64,000 nucleotides of DNA, taken from the sequence record KM190144. One strand, written 5' to 3'. Below are positions 45,462 through 52,514 of the stretch, piece by piece; within the stretch, counting starts at the first letter, position 1, and each line of letters starts with the position of its first letter. The notes under the pieces are model-generated. The model saw only the letters and a list, made by a program, of their open reading frames with translations, made no database searches and had not been told where the DNA came from. Made by a program: the position numbers and the translations under genes. Source of the DNA: Escherichia phage Av-05.

Positions 45462-46100
45462 TTACTCTGATATAGGGTCTGTTTTTGATCTTCTTTTCTG
45501 GACTTTCTTGGGTCTTCCTGTGATATGTGACCATGAGTATCCATTATTTAAAGAAGATATTGTATTTCTGGAAACTCCGAATAGTTCCGCAATAGCTTTG
45601 TGTGTTATCCCACAATCAATAAGCCGTACAATCTCTAAAACTTTCTCCTTTGTAAGGACAGATAAATGATAATCATCACCAAATTTTTGGATTCTCCCCA
45701 TACTATAAGCCACTGTATTGTTATGGCTATAGGTACACCACTCAAGATTTTCAACTCTATTATTATGTCTGTTACCATCTATGTGGTTTATAATTGGAAC
45801 TCCTAGCACAGTTTTTCTGCATTCTTTCTGCAATTCTGGAGAAGGAGGCTCTTTAAAAGCCTCCGCTACAAGTCTATGGACTGAAAAACTTTTCCCTGAA
45901 TCTTTACCCCTTTTGTACAAGCACACGCTCGGATAGCATTGTGGAGATAAATTTTCACTTTTAGTTTTTAAATATTTCCACATTCCTGATTTAAAAGATC
46001 TTACATTTCCATAATTACTTACTTGATAATCAGGATACCCTACAATATCCTTCCAAATTTCCTCTACTTCATCAGTGGGAATCTGCCCATGTGTATCCAC
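45462..46100 (-). CDS. Free-standing HNH homing endonuclease (NUMOD4-like N-terminus)
   Basis: GYPDYQVSNYGNVRS motif and NHIDGNRHNNRVENLEW HNH motif; GTG start overlaps 3' end of polymerase exon 3. Confidence 0.65.
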   Translation of the reverse strand: MDTHGQIPTDEVEEIWKDIVGYPDYQVSNYGNVRSFKSGMWKYLKTKSENLSPQCYPSVCLYKRGKDSGKSFSVHRLVAEAFKEPPSPELQKECRKTVLGVPIINHIDGNRHNNRVENLEWCTYSHNNTVAYSMGRIQKFGDDYHLSVLTKEKVLEIVRLIDCGITHKAIAELFGVSRNTISSLNNGYSWSHITGRPKKVQKRRSKTDPISE

Positions 46101-46371
46101 AAAGATATTCTCCTGTAATTAAAACGGGAAGCCCCATTATCTTAGACGCTTTTTCTACACATTTTGTTGCAAGCTCTCCTACTGGGCAATGCAGTATCCT
46201 GTATTTCCCATACACATCAGGTTCAACAATAACTTTACCTGCTTTCACATAATGTCCGTCGAAACGATGGCCTTTTTCAAGCATCATATCTACATAGCTT
46301 TGTGCAGCCTCTAAGTTAGAATGCTCCGTTATTGATTTAAATCTTTCCGGTACTTGTACCTGTATCTCATC
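46072..46371 (-). CDS. DNA polymerase (family A), exon 3
   Basis: Begins DEIQV (completes motif C as ...YYH|DEIQV) and ends GLPVLITGEYLCGYTWADSH, like Pol I/T7 pol C-terminus. Confidence 0.6.
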   Translation of the reverse strand, partial: DEIQVQVPERFKSITEHSNLEAAQSYVDMMLEKGHRFDGHYVKAGKVIVEPDVYGKYRILHCPVGELATKCVEKASKIMGLPVLITGEYLCGYTWADSH

Positions 46372-47214
46372 CACTAGTTCAAGGAGTTCGCTACTCTCCC
46401 CCGCACCGTTACGTGCATAGCCACAAGATTTCTCCTGTGGGTCAGACTATATCATAACCCTTTTTCAAGGGTTCCTCCCGTTTGGACCGCGCTTGCTGGC
46501 CTACTCTACTCGCTTCTTCACATCAGATGAAGCTGATGCTATGCTTTCGATAGTCGTTGAACGTCACTTACCAAGTATAGTCTTTAGAGATATGCACCCA
46601 CAATCTCCGTTGTTTAATTCCTTTTACGGATGGGTAGGGGTATCCGAGATCTCTAATCTCGCATTGCCTTAGCCCTGACTGTAGCAATTCACAAATCTCT
46701 CTCACATCTTTTTCTGTGAGAATGGCATTCGCATTGTTTTCACCAATAGGTATAACACGTAATCCTGTATCGTAAGCATGTTTTATATTGCTGCCATGTG
46801 TCCCCCACTCAAGATTCCACGCTGCGTTATTAAGTTTGTTTCCATCTTTATGATTAACGCTGGTGAATCTTTCTGGATCTGGATTAGGCACAAAACATTC
46901 TGCCACCATCCGATGTATGGCTTTCGTACAGGACTTACCGTCTATCCTTATAATTGTACACAGATATCCCCTCCCATTATCAAATACCTGCAAGGGAAGT
47001 TTATCTCTTTTTGAAAGAGGCGTGGAACCATCTTCAAAAACTGTATACCCATGGTAATCTTTTGCTTTTACCATTTTACTATACCTCTTTAAGTTTTCGC
47101 TGCGGATTGGCATATTGTCCTTATAACACAATACATTATAAGAATCAACTTAGCTTTCCCGACAATTAGAGAGGTTTTCGACATGCATTACTGCATGAAG
47201 CCACAATGTTATTT
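46372..47214 (-). mobile_element. Group-I-intron-like insertion 2 in DNA polymerase gene, with HNH ORF
   Basis: Splits motif C; minus strand has R-like GTTCAACGACTA and S-like ATGATATAGTC elements; 5' exon ends U, insertion ends G. Confidence 0.55.
46568..47131 (-). CDS. Intron-encoded HNH homing endonuclease
   Basis: VNHKDGNKLNNAAWNLEWGTHGSN HNH motif; 187 aa inside insertion 2. Confidence 0.65.
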   Translation of the reverse strand: MCYKDNMPIRSENLKRYSKMVKAKDYHGYTVFEDGSTPLSKRDKLPLQVFDNGRGYLCTIIRIDGKSCTKAIHRMVAECFVPNPDPERFTSVNHKDGNKLNNAAWNLEWGTHGSNIKHAYDTGLRVIPIGENNANAILTEKDVREICELLQSGLRQCEIRDLGYPYPSVKGIKQRRLWVHISKDYTW

Positions 47215-47547
47215 ATGGTAGTAGATAACCCTTCTGACACCCTGGTCGTACCATCCCCGTTTCACCAATTCCCAATGGAACAGGACTCCCATGAGGTCAA
47301 ACAATGAAGCACCACCGTTTTGTTGGTAAGCATTCAGCAGAGAATGTTTAGAACGAGTCCAAATTTTACGCCCATCCATACCTGGAATATAGCGTCTCCC
47401 ATTTGCCTCCCAGAATTTTTCTAACCACTCCCTACGCATTTTCAACCCGAAGTTACTATCCCAGAATGCGTCTATTACAGCCTGTGCTCTATTAAGGGGG
47501 ATACCCAGCATTGCGGCTATCTTAGGAGCTTGTGCTCCATACATGAT
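47215..47547 (-). CDS. DNA polymerase (family A), exon 2
   Basis: IMYGAQAPKIAAMLG...YIPGMDGRKIWTRSKHSLLNAYQQNGGASL parallels T7 gp5 region FLYGAG...IKGLDGRKVHVRSPHAALNTLLQSAG. Confidence 0.6.
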
Positions 47548-48281
47548 CATATTGTTCAACATGGCTCGCTACACCATGCCCGTCCTTTTAGGAACTGCTA
47601 CATATTTCTATGCAGATCAGACTATATCTTCATCCTTTTCAGGATGCCCACCGCTTCGGCAGTCTGAAAGACTGGAGGTTTCCCTCACCGCTTGGCCCTA
47701 CGCCTTTCGGCTAGTCGTTGAAGTTTCGAATGCTTCCCAACATTTATGTTCTATTTGATGGCATTTTTTACAAAGTAATTCAAAATTACTTATTTCGTTA
47801 TTCGTCCTGTCATGGTCAATATGATGAACGCACCATTCATCTTTACCTGCATAAAGAAGATCTTTATTACATCTATTACAGTATCTTCTCTGTTCCTTTA
47901 TGACAGGGGATAACTTACGAAACATCGATATGCCATTTTTATAAAATTTGGACAATTTCCCACGAGGCTGCCCACCACCTTTTCCTATGCCAACTCTGTC
48001 AAGCCTATTTTCTCTTTCGGCCTTTCTGCGTCTATATTCTCTGGTTTTTATCTTTGAATATTCTCTTCTACAACCTTCAGAGAGACATACTTTTTGATTT
48101 TTACCAGTTTTAACACATTGTTCACCGCAGATTATACAACAAAATGTGCCCATATTCTCCCTCCTTTTGTAAGAGGGAAGCATTCGCTTACCTGCTGATT
48201 ATCTTCGACATAACTCGGTCAGATTTCCCAGCAATTCAATGGGTGCACCTTACAAATTACTTTGTAAGGGGGCTATCATTA
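47548..48281 (-). mobile_element. Group-I-intron-like insertion 1 in DNA polymerase gene, with HNH ORF
   Basis: Splits motif B region; R-like CTTCAACGACTA and S-like GAAGATATAGTC on minus strand; TAATGATAG stops in all frames right after exon 1. Confidence 0.55.
47698..48183 (-). CDS. Intron-encoded HNH endonuclease (Cys-rich zinc-finger N-terminus)
   Basis: CVHHIDHDRTNNEISNFELLCKKCHQIEH HNH motif; GGAGGGAG RBS. Confidence 0.65.
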   Translation of the reverse strand: MLPSYKRRENMGTFCCIICGEQCVKTGKNQKVCLSEGCRREYSKIKTREYRRRKAERENRLDRVGIGKGGGQPRGKLSKFYKNGISMFRKLSPVIKEQRRYCNRCNKDLLYAGKDEWCVHHIDHDRTNNEISNFELLCKKCHQIEHKCWEAFETSTTSRKA

Positions 48282-50318
48282 ACCATACGTAATCCCCTTT
48301 CCTCCAGAGCGTGTTACCTCCTTTCCTGCTGCTATTGTGTATGCTCTTGCGTTTCGTTCATGGGCATCCTCTTCCATCATGATACGTAAATACTCACCAC
48401 CATCAAACTCAAAAGCCCCTGCTGCAGCAATCATACCTTCTAAGTTAGACCCGTCACAACCCATCAGGTAGTAGCCTTCAGGGACTGTCCAAAGACCCCG
48501 CATTTCTTTTCCCAACAAAACCTTCGGATCAGGCTTGGGCATGTTTGCGCAAACAGTGTGCTTGCACCTGCCCGTGTTAGTGATTCCAGAAAAACGTGCT
48601 GGAAGTTTTCCGTCAATGTCTAAACGAGGGTGATTTAATAACCCTGTATCCGTCTTGTCCTCATCCATTGGGTCTAAAACAGATCGCCTGTTACGAAGTG
48701 ATAACCACTTAACAATCTGTTTTGCCATATGCACATCAATTTTCTCCAGATTTGGACACAGATGCCCAAAATTATCTTTTAGTTGAGGAGATGTCGGTAA
48801 CTGGCGTGCCTTACGCCGAAATTTCTTAAATATCTCTGAATAACCTCTTTCAGATGCATGTCGATGGTCAAACTTACGCTCTGAAATGTTGAATTTCTCA
48901 TCTGAATCATTAAGGTAGTCAAGAATAAGAGATTTATACTCAGACTCAGCCAACTCTTCTATGTACTTCTTAACTAGTACATCAATTTCAGAATCTTCTC
49001 TGGCCTTTTTAAATTGATCCTTCGTAACGTCCTTTACACGCCACAGTGTAGGTTTCCAACCAGCATCTTTGATCAGATATTTTTTAATGTCATCTTGATT
49101 GGAGATTTTCATTGGAACCATTAAATCTGGCATTTTTCTGTTTCGAAGGTCTTCTTTAGCCTTCTCTAGAAGATCCGGCGGCAAAGGTTCGAGTGTGTTC
49201 TCTTTGGTTCGCTGGGAACGAATGAAATTACCGTATAAAGCCGGATCTTCAATGCCATTCTGGATGCAATATCTCTCCCCTGCTGCACTTACATCCCCAT
49301 TACTCTTAAAAGCTGTTTTTGGTGGGGCTTTAAACTCTAGAGCTTCTCTGTTAACAGGATAACCAAGTTTATATTCCAACCAATTCCACCCATGATAAGA
49401 TATATTACCCGCTGTGTCAAAAGGGTTAGCTGGGAATTTTGGTTGTTGGGATTTCGTCATCTCTTTTTTTGGAAGAAGTGGTTCTACCTCTTCTTCAATC
49501 TCCCGCATCATCTTATCTATGCGGTCTCTTAATTTTTCTGCCTCCTCTCGATTAAAGTATACACCCTGTATTTCTTGCTCTATCATCAAATAGTCTGTGA
49601 GCATTCTCCTACGTAATGCATTTTTCCAATTAATCTGGTGCATCCCGTGAGGTTTATCAGCATACATGAACTGCTTGTCATCAGGCCATCGCGTACCATT
49701 TGACTCGTCAATAAGAGCTTTCCACACAAGTTCGTTAATGATAACGTCTTCCCACACACGGTTTACATATTCCCACAATGGTTGATTACGCCAATCATCA
49801 ATCTGTACTTTCTTGTTTGCCACACGATAACCCCATGCCAATAAGCCGTGTGGCCCAACCCTATCACGTTTTCCTGTTACAGGGTTTAATACAGAGTCTG
49901 GGCAGCCATTAGGCAATGGGCGATCTGGGTAAAGAACACGACTCATTGAAAGAGTGTCGTAAAGATTTACCTGTTTATTACCTATCGTCCCCATACATTT
50001 TGGGTCTTTGAACATATCATATTCAATCCCAGAAAGTTTTTTCCACAGACGTAAATCATAGCCAAACAGGTTATGTATTGCTATCCCTCTTGGTTCGGTC
50101 TGTAACCAAGAGTAAAAATCATCATAAGAAAGGATTCGTAAATTAACACCTTCTTTGCTGCGTGCAAAATTAACTGCACTCTGGTATTCCTTGTGAGCAG
50201 GATCGAGAAACAACACCCAGTTATTTACAGCATATTCTTTAAAAAGTGTGCAGTGATATTTAGTTGCCTCTTCTAATAATCCGTCAGCCTCTGTATCGGC
50301 TAAAAAAAGTCCTTTCAT
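48282..50318 (-). CDS. DNA polymerase (family A, T7-like), exon 1 (3'-5' exo plus N-terminal polymerase part)
   Basis: Exo I motif FLADTEADGL; motif A region CDGSNLE; ends ...RSGGKGITYG; AGGAGG RBS before ATG 50318 (track start 50360 upstream of RBS). Confidence 0.65.
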
Positions 50319-50513
50319 ACTCCTCCTATTCAAGATGGGCTTGACTGTATCGTCGCCCATCTCTTAGTTGGTTATAGATTATGTGGAAAACTACCTATTT
50401 TTGATTTATGTTTCTTTGCCAAAGGGCTTCTCTTGGCGGGAATGTATCCCTCAAGCCCCTTGGCAACACGAATAGCTAACTCATCATATTTTACATGTAT
50501 CCTCTTTTTTCTC

Positions 50514-52514
50514 TCAAAATGGAGAATCGCTATCTAAATCTTCAGGTTGCTCAATCACAACAGCAGGTTCTTGTTGAGGAACAGAAACAGCAATTTTCCC
50601 CACAGGTGTTTCAAGTTCCAGACTTTGAATCATTGATTTAGGTCTTAGCATTACCTCCCCATTAAGTTTAAACATACCATCTTCCCACACCCAACCAGAT
50701 GCATCAGAAAACTGACCATTATCATCCATAATCAGAGTATCCGCTATGCCTAATTTTTTGTGTGGACGGTTTTTCAAAACAACACTACGAATACGCCCAC
50801 GAGATCGGTCAGGGAGTTCTTCAGGCTCGACACCTAAGACAACCCACGATAACTGTTCGAGTGCTGCACTTCCCCTTAAAGATTCTTTTCTCACCGGATA
50901 CCAGAAAGGTAACAAATTACCTTCTTTATCTTTCGGAATTTGTATATCAACACGCTTCATATGACTGATACTGAGGATAAACACGTCATATTTTTTGCAG
51001 AAGGCAGCCAATTCCGTCATGATGTTATCTAAATCTCTTCTCTCGTTATCAGATTTTAATCCTGATATCACCATCGACAAGTGATCTAAAATAATCCACC
51101 TACACCCGTCAAGGAAAACCATCTGTTTCAATTTTTGTAGTAATTGGTCAGTCGGTATTGAACCAAAGTGATCAAAAATTTTAACCTTATCTTCGGCAAT
51201 CCACCGTTGGTGTATAGCTAAGTGCTGCTCATCGGTAAGAAATTGCTCTGGATCTGCAACAAATGCTTTCGGGTCAATTTTTAACTCCTCAGCATATAGA
51301 CTGTTTACAGACTCCTCTTCATCCTCCTCTAGACGGATAATTGCAATTTTCTCGTTCTCTTTCCAACCGTCCAGTCGGGGAATATCCATGTTACGGAGGT
51401 ACTCGATAATTGCATACTCAATCTTTCTTGAGAAAGTTGATTTCCCAGCTCCAGATGGGCCTGTCAGTGTCCACAATTCTCCTGTTCGTGGGCCTCTTGT
51501 TAGTTCATACAAACGAGGAAAGCACGGCAACGGAACGCCATCTTTTTTCTTTTTACGGAGATTTTCAATAGATATTCTCTCCAACCCAATCAATTTGTCT
51601 GGAACATATTTATCCTGCGCTTTAGCAAACATGTTCCAGATATCCATCCACTTACCTTTTTTGTAAATATCCCGGATATCTTTAACACCATTTGGGTCAT
51701 TGCGTTCATTTGGGTATCGTGCAACGTAGATATTGTCAGACAGTAAAAAACCTGCGACATCATCTGTAGCTTCCTTGCCTTTCTTAATTCTGTGTTCTTT
51801 TTCCCTTGCTGTGGCTTCATCATTGTCTAAACCAAGGACAATCTTTTCATATTCCCTGATAAACTTTTCGTTGTGGGCAAATGTATCTACCGCATTGGCT
51901 GTTCCACAGTTCAACCCGATAAAAGGTAATGTCGGGCAATTAGAAACCTCCTCACCATCCTGAATGGCTTTGATACCTTTTAAAGCATTGTTTGCCCACT
52001 CACGTACTGAACGTGACGTATTAGGATTACTATGAAGAAATTTAATATACTCAAACCCAGCTTGCCAGCCAGCCGTTACATCGCCTTCCCCCTCAACAAT
52101 AAAGATCTGTTTTTTACCAGATCCCATAGAGGCCTCATGTTGACCAAAAAATTGAGAGGAAGCCTTTACTGTGCCAACAACAGAGAAATGCCCCTTTTTC
52201 TCTTTCGGAACAGTCCAGTCTCGTTTCTTGTACCCTGTCAATTTCCCATATTTGTCATAATATGGAAGATATGTTGCCACTACTGTAGTACCGTCTTTCA
52301 AATCTGTTGCAGATCTGATCTTGAAGTACTTAGCTGCATCTAAACTAATATCCATTTGGGGGACAGCCAAGATCCTTGTACTATCCAGGACAGACTCTAC
52401 AGTTTCTTCTTCTTTTTTCTGATAATTCACTTTACCACCACTTTTTGTAGGTCGGAATGCTTTTGGGTTCTCACCTTCAAAGTATGCACCAGCCCCCCAT
52501 TTTGTAATCTTCAT
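50514..52514 (-). CDS. Primase-helicase (TOPRIM primase fused to DnaB-like helicase, T7 gp4-like)
   Basis: TOPRIM IFIVEGEGD and LGLDNDEAT; Walker A LTGPSGAGKST; Walker B WIILDHLS; acidic C-terminus ending DSDSPF. Confidence 0.7.
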   Translation of the reverse strand: MKITKWGAGAYFEGENPKAFRPTKSGGKVNYQKKEEETVESVLDSTRILAVPQMDISLDAAKYFKIRSATDLKDGTTVVATYLPYYDKYGKLTGYKKRDWTVPKEKKGHFSVVGTVKASSQFFGQHEASMGSGKKQIFIVEGEGDVTAGWQAGFEYIKFLHSNPNTSRSVREWANNALKGIKAIQDGEEVSNCPTLPFIGLNCGTANAVDTFAHNEKFIREYEKIVLGLDNDEATAREKEHRIKKGKEATDDVAGFLLSDNIYVARYPNERNDPNGVKDIRDIYKKGKWMDIWNMFAKAQDKYVPDKLIGLERISIENLRKKKKDGVPLPCFPRLYELTRGPRTGELWTLTGPSGAGKSTFSRKIEYAIIEYLRNMDIPRLDGWKENEKIAIIRLEEDEEESVNSLYAEELKIDPKAFVADPEQFLTDEQHLAIHQRWIAEDKVKIFDHFGSIPTDQLLQKLKQMVFLDGCRWIILDHLSMVISGLKSDNERRDLDNIMTELAAFCKKYDVFILSISHMKRVDIQIPKDKEGNLLPFWYPVRKESLRGSAALEQLSWVVLGVEPEELPDRSRGRIRSVVLKNRPHKKLGIADTLIMDDNGQFSDASGWVWEDGMFKLNGEVMLRPKSMIQSLELETPVGKIAVSVPQQEPAVVIEQPEDLDSDSPF

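Follow-up and report, generated by a model that had tools for sequence, protein, structure and literature searches.

Group IA2 introns that carry HNH endonuclease genes have long been known in the family A DNA polymerase genes of phages, with examples in SPO1, SP82, Bastille, PhiI/W31, phiL7 and Pf-WMP3 (PMC3428280). In Pectobacterium phage vB_PatM_CB7 (CB7) the polymerase is distributed over three open reading frames (ORFs) by two HNH-containing introns and is flanked by free-standing HNH genes. Reverse transcription PCR and Sanger-sequenced cDNA showed that both of these polymerase introns splice (PMC7344957). Here we describe the polymerase gene of Escherichia phage Av-05, an rV5-like member of the Vequintavirinae, which is located on the minus strand of a 64,000-nucleotide (nt) stretch of DNA (sequence record KM190144), referred to below as the window. 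The explanation that accounts best for this locus, and that we consider very probable, is that a gene for a complete T7-like polymerase is interrupted by two self-splicing, mobile introns, each with an HNH gene of its own. Polymerase introns at these two sites are a known arrangement, as the same two codons are split and spliced in CB7, and we regard Av-05 as an ordinary case of it.

The minus strand of the polymerase locus contains three ORFs (48279-50360, 47209-47562 and 46072-46374). An earlier reading of the bare letters, made without database searches (the sequence-only reading), had taken them for consecutive segments of one family A polymerase, kept apart by segments of 734 and 843 nt that each encode an HNH protein. 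The results presented here agree with that reading: the lengths and the HNH matches are as it gave them, and the three exons delimited in Table 1, when joined, encode a family A polymerase of 889 amino acids (aa). The lengths of all three exons are divisible by 3, and the frame is preserved at both joins (48282/47547 and 47215/46371; a slash between coordinates or within a sequence marks a splice site). The joined protein matches Pfam DNA_pol_A with 39.8 bits (cutoff 34.3). Aligned to T7 DNA polymerase (gp5), a comparison that had been proposed as a check, it gave one continuous alignment with T7 residues 470-660 that spans both joins. This alignment covers motif A (CDGSNLE in Av-05, IDASGLE in T7) and then, in order, motifs B and C; in addition, T7 residues 3-138 align with the N-terminal DxE exonuclease motif of the joined polymerase. 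The sequence GMDGRKIW...QQNGGASL is also present on ORF 47209-47562.

One break interrupts motif B and the other separates the His of motif C from its Asp; joining the exons restores both motifs. At join 1, TRSGGKGITYG/IMYGAQAPKIA corresponds in the alignment to T7 TRDNAKTFIYGFLYGAGDEKIG (TRsggKgitYGimYGa versus TRDNAKTFIYGFLYGA), and at join 2, VIYYH/DEIQVQV corresponds to T7 MAWVHDEIQVGC (yyHDEIQV versus wvHDEIQV). As to the beginning of the gene, ATG 50318 is likely the polymerase start, rather than 50360, because a Shine-Dalgarno (SD) sequence, AGGAGG, is found at 50327-50322, 3 nt upstream of it, and because the annotation of phage 18-1-2 uses the equivalent start. The preference of the sequence-only reading for 50318 is borne out by these two observations.

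The polymerases of related phages locate the junctions. The Av-05 polymerase locus is about 97% identical to that of Escherichia phages 18-1-2, 19-1-2, 24-2-1 and TH18 (genus Avunavirus), and about 75% identical to that of Klebsiella Mydovirus phages. In Klebsiella phage NDO71, which is without the second insertion, blastn connects Av-05 position 47215 straight to 46371. Uninterrupted polymerases occur in Cronobacter phage EspYZU12 (81% protein identity) and in Escherichia phage V18; they align without gaps at both joins and read GKGVTYGIMYGAQ at site 1 and IYYHDEYQ (IYYHDEYQLQVP) at site 2. These comparisons show that both exon junctions, 48282/47547 and 47215/46371, are exact. The positions proposed from the letters alone stand; the uncertainty of a few nt that had been attached to them does not.

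The same two sites recur among the relatives. When nine related loci were compared by tblastn, the polymerase was split exclusively between residues 693 and 694 or between residues 804 and 805 (numbered from ATG 50360). Both introns are present in Av-05, 18-1-2 and CB7, only the site 1 intron in NDO71 and KpS11, only the site 2 intron in W70, FFH2, HMD-6 and navn, and neither of them in EspYZU12 and V18. Such patchy presence at fixed sites is the pattern expected of mobile introns. The site 2 intron is widespread in the rV5-like genus Vequintavirus, with 166 matching records, and occurs there both with a homologous ORF and without one. No tblastn match to the joined polymerase was obtained for phage PhAPEC7.

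Reading through the breaks is not productive: translation past exon 1 meets a stop immediately (GGT/TAA, the first codon of intron 1), and translation past exon 2 meets one after a single codon (CAT/AAA TAA, the second codon of intron 2). These reading frames bear directly on the possibility that the inserts are not removed from the RNA at all and are instead inteins, or are bypassed in translation by ribosome hopping. Inteins do occur in other replication genes of related phages, for instance in the helicase, NrdA and NrdB of CB7. In Av-05, however, the in-frame stops rule against protein splicing as well as bypass, the HNH ORFs are out of frame continuity with the exons and have an SD sequence and an ATG of their own, and no Pfam intein domain was matched. 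We rejected both variants on the reading frames and assign them virtually no probability.

On the evidence of their sequence and fold, both intervening sequences are group IA2 introns with an HNH ORF looped out of P6 (Table 1). The criterion for this subgroup is the presence of P7.1 and P7.2 between P7 and the 3' strand of P3, with a G-U-A linker (PMC3428280). In both Av-05 introns P7.1 and P7.2 are linked by GUA: intron 1 reads GACUA-GCCGAAAGGC-GUA-GGGCC..., and intron 2 reads ...GCGA-GUA-GAGUA-GGCCAGCAAGCGCGGUCC, with GCCGAGAGGC-GUA-GGCG... in its W70 and CB7 homologues. The nucleotides at the splice sites are those of group I introns in all ten introns extracted (10/10), the 5' exon ending in U and the intron in G. 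The U-G pair of P1 is likewise invariant, in 5/5 homologues of intron 1 and 7/7 homologues of intron 2. A P10 pairing can be read from the sequence for each intron, between AUCAU of the 3' exon and AUGAU for intron 1, and between GAUG and CAUU for intron 2.

Conservation of pairing supports these structures. For the alignment of the cores, the ORF-containing loop of P6 was replaced by hand with a GAAA tetraloop. Without guidance, RNAalifold recovered P1, P2, P3, P4, P5, P6, P8, P9, P9.1 and P9.2 in both introns, and the P7 pseudoknot (GACUA with UAGUC) was added to this fold before pairs were counted. For intron 2 (7 sequences), 98.9% of the cells form a standard pair, as compared to 36-41% when the partners were slid, and 24 of the 64 pairs, among them pairs of P3 and P7, show compensatory changes. 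Similar values were obtained for intron 1 (5 sequences): 98.5% of the cells are paired, against 35-43% after sliding, and compensatory changes affect 12 of 80 pairs, two of them in the P6 stem of 12 bp by which the ORF is enclosed.

The group I assignment was also compared with the curated Rfam model RF00028 (group I intron), whose gathering threshold is 50 bits. When the locus and the whole window were scanned by E-value, RF00028 matched only at the two polymerase introns, and no further group I introns or tRNA genes were found in the window. This covariance-model scan, another of the checks that had been suggested, gave matches to both introns: 47.5 bits (E 3e-10) for the 3' half of intron 1 and 41.1 bits (E 2.5e-8) for the 5' half of intron 2, with 24.5 bits for its 3' half.

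Several observations weigh against two functional self-splicing introns. All three scores are below 50 bits, and at the gathering threshold Rfam gave no match in the whole 64-kb window. No ORF-less copy of intron 1 was found in the phage collection, in which all full-length matches contain the ORF; the scores that a curated model gave for intron 1 therefore come only from copies interrupted by the ORF. Moreover, the covariation of intron 1 comes from three independent lineages only. The CB7 precedent has its limits too. CB7 intron 2 has another ORF (127 aa) than the I-HmuI-like one of Av-05 intron 2, and the precedent therefore applies directly to the site and to the family of the ribozyme, not to the exact sequence. 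Finally, one HNH-associated interruption in CB7 (nicotinamide phosphoribosyl transferase) did not splice (PMC7344957), and splicing is therefore not to be assumed for every insertion of this kind.

Some of these points could mean that the introns are degenerate and splice inefficiently, so that the polymerase gene would be a pseudogene or poorly expressed, and replication would proceed via another polymerase. The Av-05 copies are indeed just under the Rfam gathering threshold, and their two large ORF inserts might slow folding. The low scores are most likely explained, however, by the ORF inserts, which would break the model: homologues of intron 2 that are without an ORF score 65-91 bits, above the threshold (18-1-2, 317 nt, 91.2 bits, E 1e-22; HMD-6, 75.6 bits; navn, 64.7 bits), and the ORF-bearing homologues of intron 1 score 42-47.5 bits. 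Every core helix is intact in the Av-05 sequences. The exon proteins are 97-99% identical to those of 18-1-2 and free of frameshifts and stops, and ORF-bearing introns of the same architecture splice in CB7. Degenerate introns are in our view extremely unlikely.

CB7 itself (Certrevirus, Vequintavirinae) allows a detailed comparison. It shares with Av-05 the layout of three exons and two introns (CB7_53/52/51/50/49), both introns containing an HNH ORF, and its polymerase is split at identical residues, GK.(I/V)TYG/IMYGAQ and YYH/DE. CB7 belongs to another genus and has a different host, and the protein encoded by its polymerase exon 1 is about 63% identical to that of Av-05. Its intron 1 is 69% identical to Av-05 intron 1 at the DNA level, ORF included, and its intron 2 is of the same ribozyme family as that of Av-05, with which it covaries in P1, P2, P3, P8 and P9. 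Free-standing HNH genes are present on both flanks of the CB7 polymerase (CB7_54 and CB7_48), whereas Av-05 has one at the 3' end only, where it overlaps the stop codon. From the anatomy of the ribozymes, their covariation and the splicing of a homologue at the same sites, we infer with high confidence that the Av-05 introns splice.

A model without RNA splicing has to be considered at this point. The gene would have been split by free-standing homing-endonuclease genes, and its pieces, each translated by itself, would come together as an active enzyme. The model for such separately translated fragments is NrdA of Aeromonas phage Aeh1, which is split by mobE. In GenBank the pieces of the polymerase are annotated as separate coding sequences (CDSs) in relatives, each piece has a possible start (ATG 47562 for the exon 2 ORF, GTG 46374 for the exon 3 ORF), and the unspliced CB7 interruption mentioned above also speaks for such a model. 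Neither of these starts, though, is preceded by an SD sequence, and for exon 3 the GTG is the only start available, as an ATG is missing. Both candidate codons are situated within the P9.2 hairpin of the preceding intron. Motif B and the His-Asp pair of motif C, where the breaks fall, are moreover poor places to divide a protein into independently folding units. Separate translation would also leave unexplained why covarying group I ribozymes with the correct splice-site nucleotides are found at both breaks, and the same two sites splice in CB7. With ribosome-binding sites missing and ribozyme cores present, we rejected separately translated fragments as very unlikely and retain the two self-splicing introns. 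No minus-strand terminator-like site was found within the polymerase gene, and promoter-like matches at the locus are at chance level; these scans are informative only in being consistent with a single transcript.

Other related introns are known at site 2. The Vequintavirus (rV5-like) phages FFH2, FV3, HMD-6 and navn share with Av-05 the insertion at YYH/DE and a homologous ribozyme, and differ from it in being without intron 1. In FFH2 and FV3 a homologous HNH ORF is inserted at the same P6 position as in Av-05 intron 2, and the FFH2 DNA is 72% identical over Av-05 47361-46346.

Likeness extends to the longer-known polymerase introns. Those of SPO1, SP82 and Bastille (encoding I-HmuI, I-HmuII and I-BasI), Pf-WMP3 (I-PfoP3I) and PhiI/W31/Yep-phi (I-TslI) are of the same IA2 subgroup, with the GUA linker between P7.1 and P7.2. 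As in the Av-05 introns, the ORF is found in the P6 region and reaches into the core, the intron opens with a UAA stop (in Av-05, intron 1), the HNH enzyme is related to I-HmuI, and catalytically essential motifs are the place of insertion. I-HmuI, the endonuclease of the SPO1 polymerase intron, is matched both by the intron 2 ORF of Av-05 and by its free-standing HNH ORF. In contrast to Av-05, the SPO1-, Pf-WMP3- and PhiI-type systems are all without an intron at the His/Asp site of motif C, and no polymerase gene among them contains two introns.

The insertion sites also differ. The Av-05 introns are not at the SPO1/Pf-WMP3-type site: the Pf-WMP3 intron is inserted upstream of motif A, at SSSKP/NIQQIP, and those of SPO1, SP82 and Bastille are inserted at the Pf-WMP3 site as well (PMC3428280). 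Neither is intron 1 at the site used in T7-like phages, as the intron of Yep-phi (NC_023715, ~1210-1885) is found at KTF/IYG, 10 nt upstream of site 1. The 3' core of the Yep-phi intron is 81.5% identical over 81 nt to that of Av-05 intron 1. Yep-phi and Av-05 have, in other words, related ribozymes at neighbouring but distinct motif B sites, in polymerases that are only about 30% identical. T4 td, nrdB and sunY are group IA2 phage introns too, with a homing-endonuclease ORF looped from a peripheral helix, and differ in that they interrupt other host genes. The endonucleases of the td and sunY introns belong to another family, GIY-YIG. T4-like nrdB introns match Av-05 at 90% over 50 nt, and the J8/7-P7 sequence AAGAUAUAGUCU is common to the Av-05 introns, T4-like nrdB introns and the Yep-phi polymerase intron.

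Table 1. Exons, introns, HNH genes and predicted intron helices at the polymerase locus of phage Av-05 (positions are those of the window)
Feature	Position	Strand	Remarks
Polymerase exon 1	48282..50318	-	679 codons; FLADTEADGL exonuclease motif, motif A CDGSNLEG, first half of motif B (...RSGGKGITYG)
Intron 1	47548..48281	-	group IA2, 734 nt; begins UAA (in-frame stop), terminal G at 47548
Intron 1 HNH ORF	47698..48153	-	151 aa; ATG 48153; SD AAGGAGGG at 48166-48159
Polymerase exon 2	47215..47547	-	111 codons; from second half of motif B (IMYGAQAPK...) to motif C His (...VIYYH)
Intron 2	46372..47214	-	group IA2, 843 nt; terminal G at 46372
Intron 2 HNH_3 ORF	46568..47113	-	181 aa; I-HmuI-like; ATG 47113; SD AAGGA at 47122-47118
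Polymerase exon 3	46072..46371	-	99 codons + TGA stop; motif C Asp-Glu first (DEIQVQVP...), end ...GYTWADSH
Free-standing HNH gene	45462..46100	-	212 aa; NUMOD4 + HNH_3 + helix-turn-helix; GTG start, AGGAG 9 nt upstream
Intron 1 P1	48284-48271		GGU/UA with UAGCC
Intron 1 P2	48269-48248		
Intron 1 P3	48243-48237 with 47653-47647		
Intron 1 P4/P5	48234-48192		
Intron 1 P6	48186-48175 with 47738-47727		encloses the ORF
Intron 1 P7	47716-47712 with strand within 47630-47619		GACUA with UAGUC
Intron 1 P7.1	47711-47702		
Intron 1 P8	47646-47631		
Intron 1 P9	47615-47598		
Intron 1 P9.1	47595-47582		
Intron 1 P9.2	47580-47558		
Intron 2 P1	47218-47201		CCAU/AA with UUGUGG
Intron 2 P2	47197-47182		
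Intron 2 P3	47174-47169 with 46479-46474		
Intron 2 P4	47165-47158, 47106-47100		two strands
Intron 2 P6	47094-47090 with 46570-46566		ACUUA with UAAGU; encloses the ORF
Intron 2 P7	46555-46551 with strand within 46455-46444		GACUA with UAGUC
Intron 2 P7.2	46501-46484		
Intron 2 P8	46473-46456		
Intron 2 P9	46440-46421		
Intron 2 P9.1	46416-46403		
Intron 2 P9.2	46401-46381		

The HNH ORF of intron 1 matches the full length (1-149/149) of phrog_25862, 'HNH endonuclease', with an E-value of 4.7e-93. Its Pfam scores of 21.8 and 20.3 bits are below the cutoffs; the HNH motif CVHHIDHDRTNNEISNFELLCKKCHQIEH is readable. The 3' end of this ORF overlaps the 3' strand of P6, P7 and P7.1. At the other end, its SD sequence AAGGAGGG is complementary to CCCUCU just upstream, and this CCCUCU overlaps the 5' strand of P6 (CGAAUGCUUCCC; 48186-48151, minus strand). 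Through this overlap, folding of the ribozyme and translation of the intron 1 endonuclease might compete.

The ORF of intron 2, which begins in the 3' strands of P5 and P4, matches Pfam HNH_3 with 25.5 bits (cutoff 24.8), I-HmuI (1U3E) with an E-value of 6e-6 and phrog_59 with an E-value of 4e-35. Intron 2 of 18-1-2 is without this ORF: a segment of 17 nt stands in place of Av-05 47095-46565 (531 nt). In the ORF-less intron of 18-1-2 (OK136180 4687-5003) this segment forms a CAUCCC-UAC-GGGAUG hairpin, and the Vequintavirus phage HMD-6 has a similar P6 hairpin, CAUCC-GAGA-GGAUG, in an intron that is likewise without an ORF. Forms of the intron with and without the ORF therefore coexist in two genera.

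The free-standing HNH gene overlaps the final 29 nt of the polymerase gene and is part of neither intron. Its product matches HNH_3 with 32.2 bits and I-HmuI (1U3E) with an E-value of 2e-11, and is a paralogue of the intron 2 ORF product (34% identity). The gene is missing from the 97%-identical phage 18-1-2, where 48 nt correspond to 622 nt in Av-05, and a search of the phage collection gave no DNA nearly identical to it. The gene directly upstream of the polymerase, at 50514-52514 on the minus strand, is uninterrupted and encodes a T7 gp4-like primase/helicase of 666 aa. Compared with 18-1-2, Av-05 has two clean indels, the ORF of intron 2 and the free-standing one, and these also distinguish it from 19-1-2, 24-2-1 and TH18. 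Judging from these matches, the intron-encoded HNH proteins are putative homing endonucleases that would drive homing of their introns.

Taken together, the locus can be pictured as follows. The polymerase gene would be transcribed as a single minus-strand pre-mRNA with two self-splicing group IA2 introns, each of which would fold into a canonical ribozyme core with its HNH gene looped from P6. An external guanosine would cut after the U of the P1 U-G wobble (after 48282 and after 47215), and the exons, with the 3' exon positioned by P10, would be ligated at the terminal G (47548 and 46372). The spliced RNA is predicted to read ...ACGTATGGT/ATCATGTATGGA... at join 1 and ...TACTACCAT/GATGAGATACAG... 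at join 2, and the peptides predicted to span the junctions are GITYGIMYGAQAPK and VIYYHDEIQVQVPER. Removal of both introns would give the mRNA for the 889-aa T7-like polymerase, with motifs B and C intact. The HNH proteins, in turn, would act on co-infecting relatives by nicking or cutting polymerase alleles that have no intron, and repair would copy the intron in. Homing into intron-less alleles would therefore account for the patchy presence of the introns among the Vequintavirinae.

The current understanding of group I introns and homing endonucleases is not changed by the polymerase introns of Av-05. Their main value is for annotation, as in the records of its closest relatives the polymerase is entered as two or three unrelated CDSs together with 'hypothetical proteins'. 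In 18-1-2, no polymerase annotation covers exon 3 (OK136180 5004-5300), and the HNH protein of the intron is labelled 'hypothetical protein'; the public records of relatives of the FFH2, FV3, HMD-6 and navn type mark no intron and have separate polymerase CDSs. The genome paper on rV5 gives a polymerase of 775 aa (PMC3606486), and this may likewise be a pre-intron fragment. As a consequence of such fragmented annotation, polymerase phylogenies and pangenomes of the Vequintavirinae use truncated proteins. The exact junctions permit the full 889-aa enzyme to be reconstructed.

The only mildly unusual aspect of the locus is the presence or absence, among near-identical genomes, of the intron 2 ORF and of the paralogous HNH gene next to the polymerase. 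In a proposed pathway called 'collaborative homing', a free-standing endonuclease beside a gene targets the insertion site of an intron and then moves into that intron, which results in a mobile intron. It is conceivable, though we think it unlikely, that Av-05 is a natural snapshot of this pathway, with an endonuclease entering the ORF-less intron 2; if true, the two HNH paralogues would be the before and after states within one genome. The ORF-plus and ORF-minus variants of the intron in near-identical genomes could serve homing experiments. The comparison also documents two insertion sites, one within motif B and one that separates the His of motif C from its Asp, and both are distinct from the SPO1-type and the PhiI/W31/Yep-phi sites. 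With Av-05, an Avunavirus-like phage would join those that need RNA self-splicing to make their essential family A polymerase.

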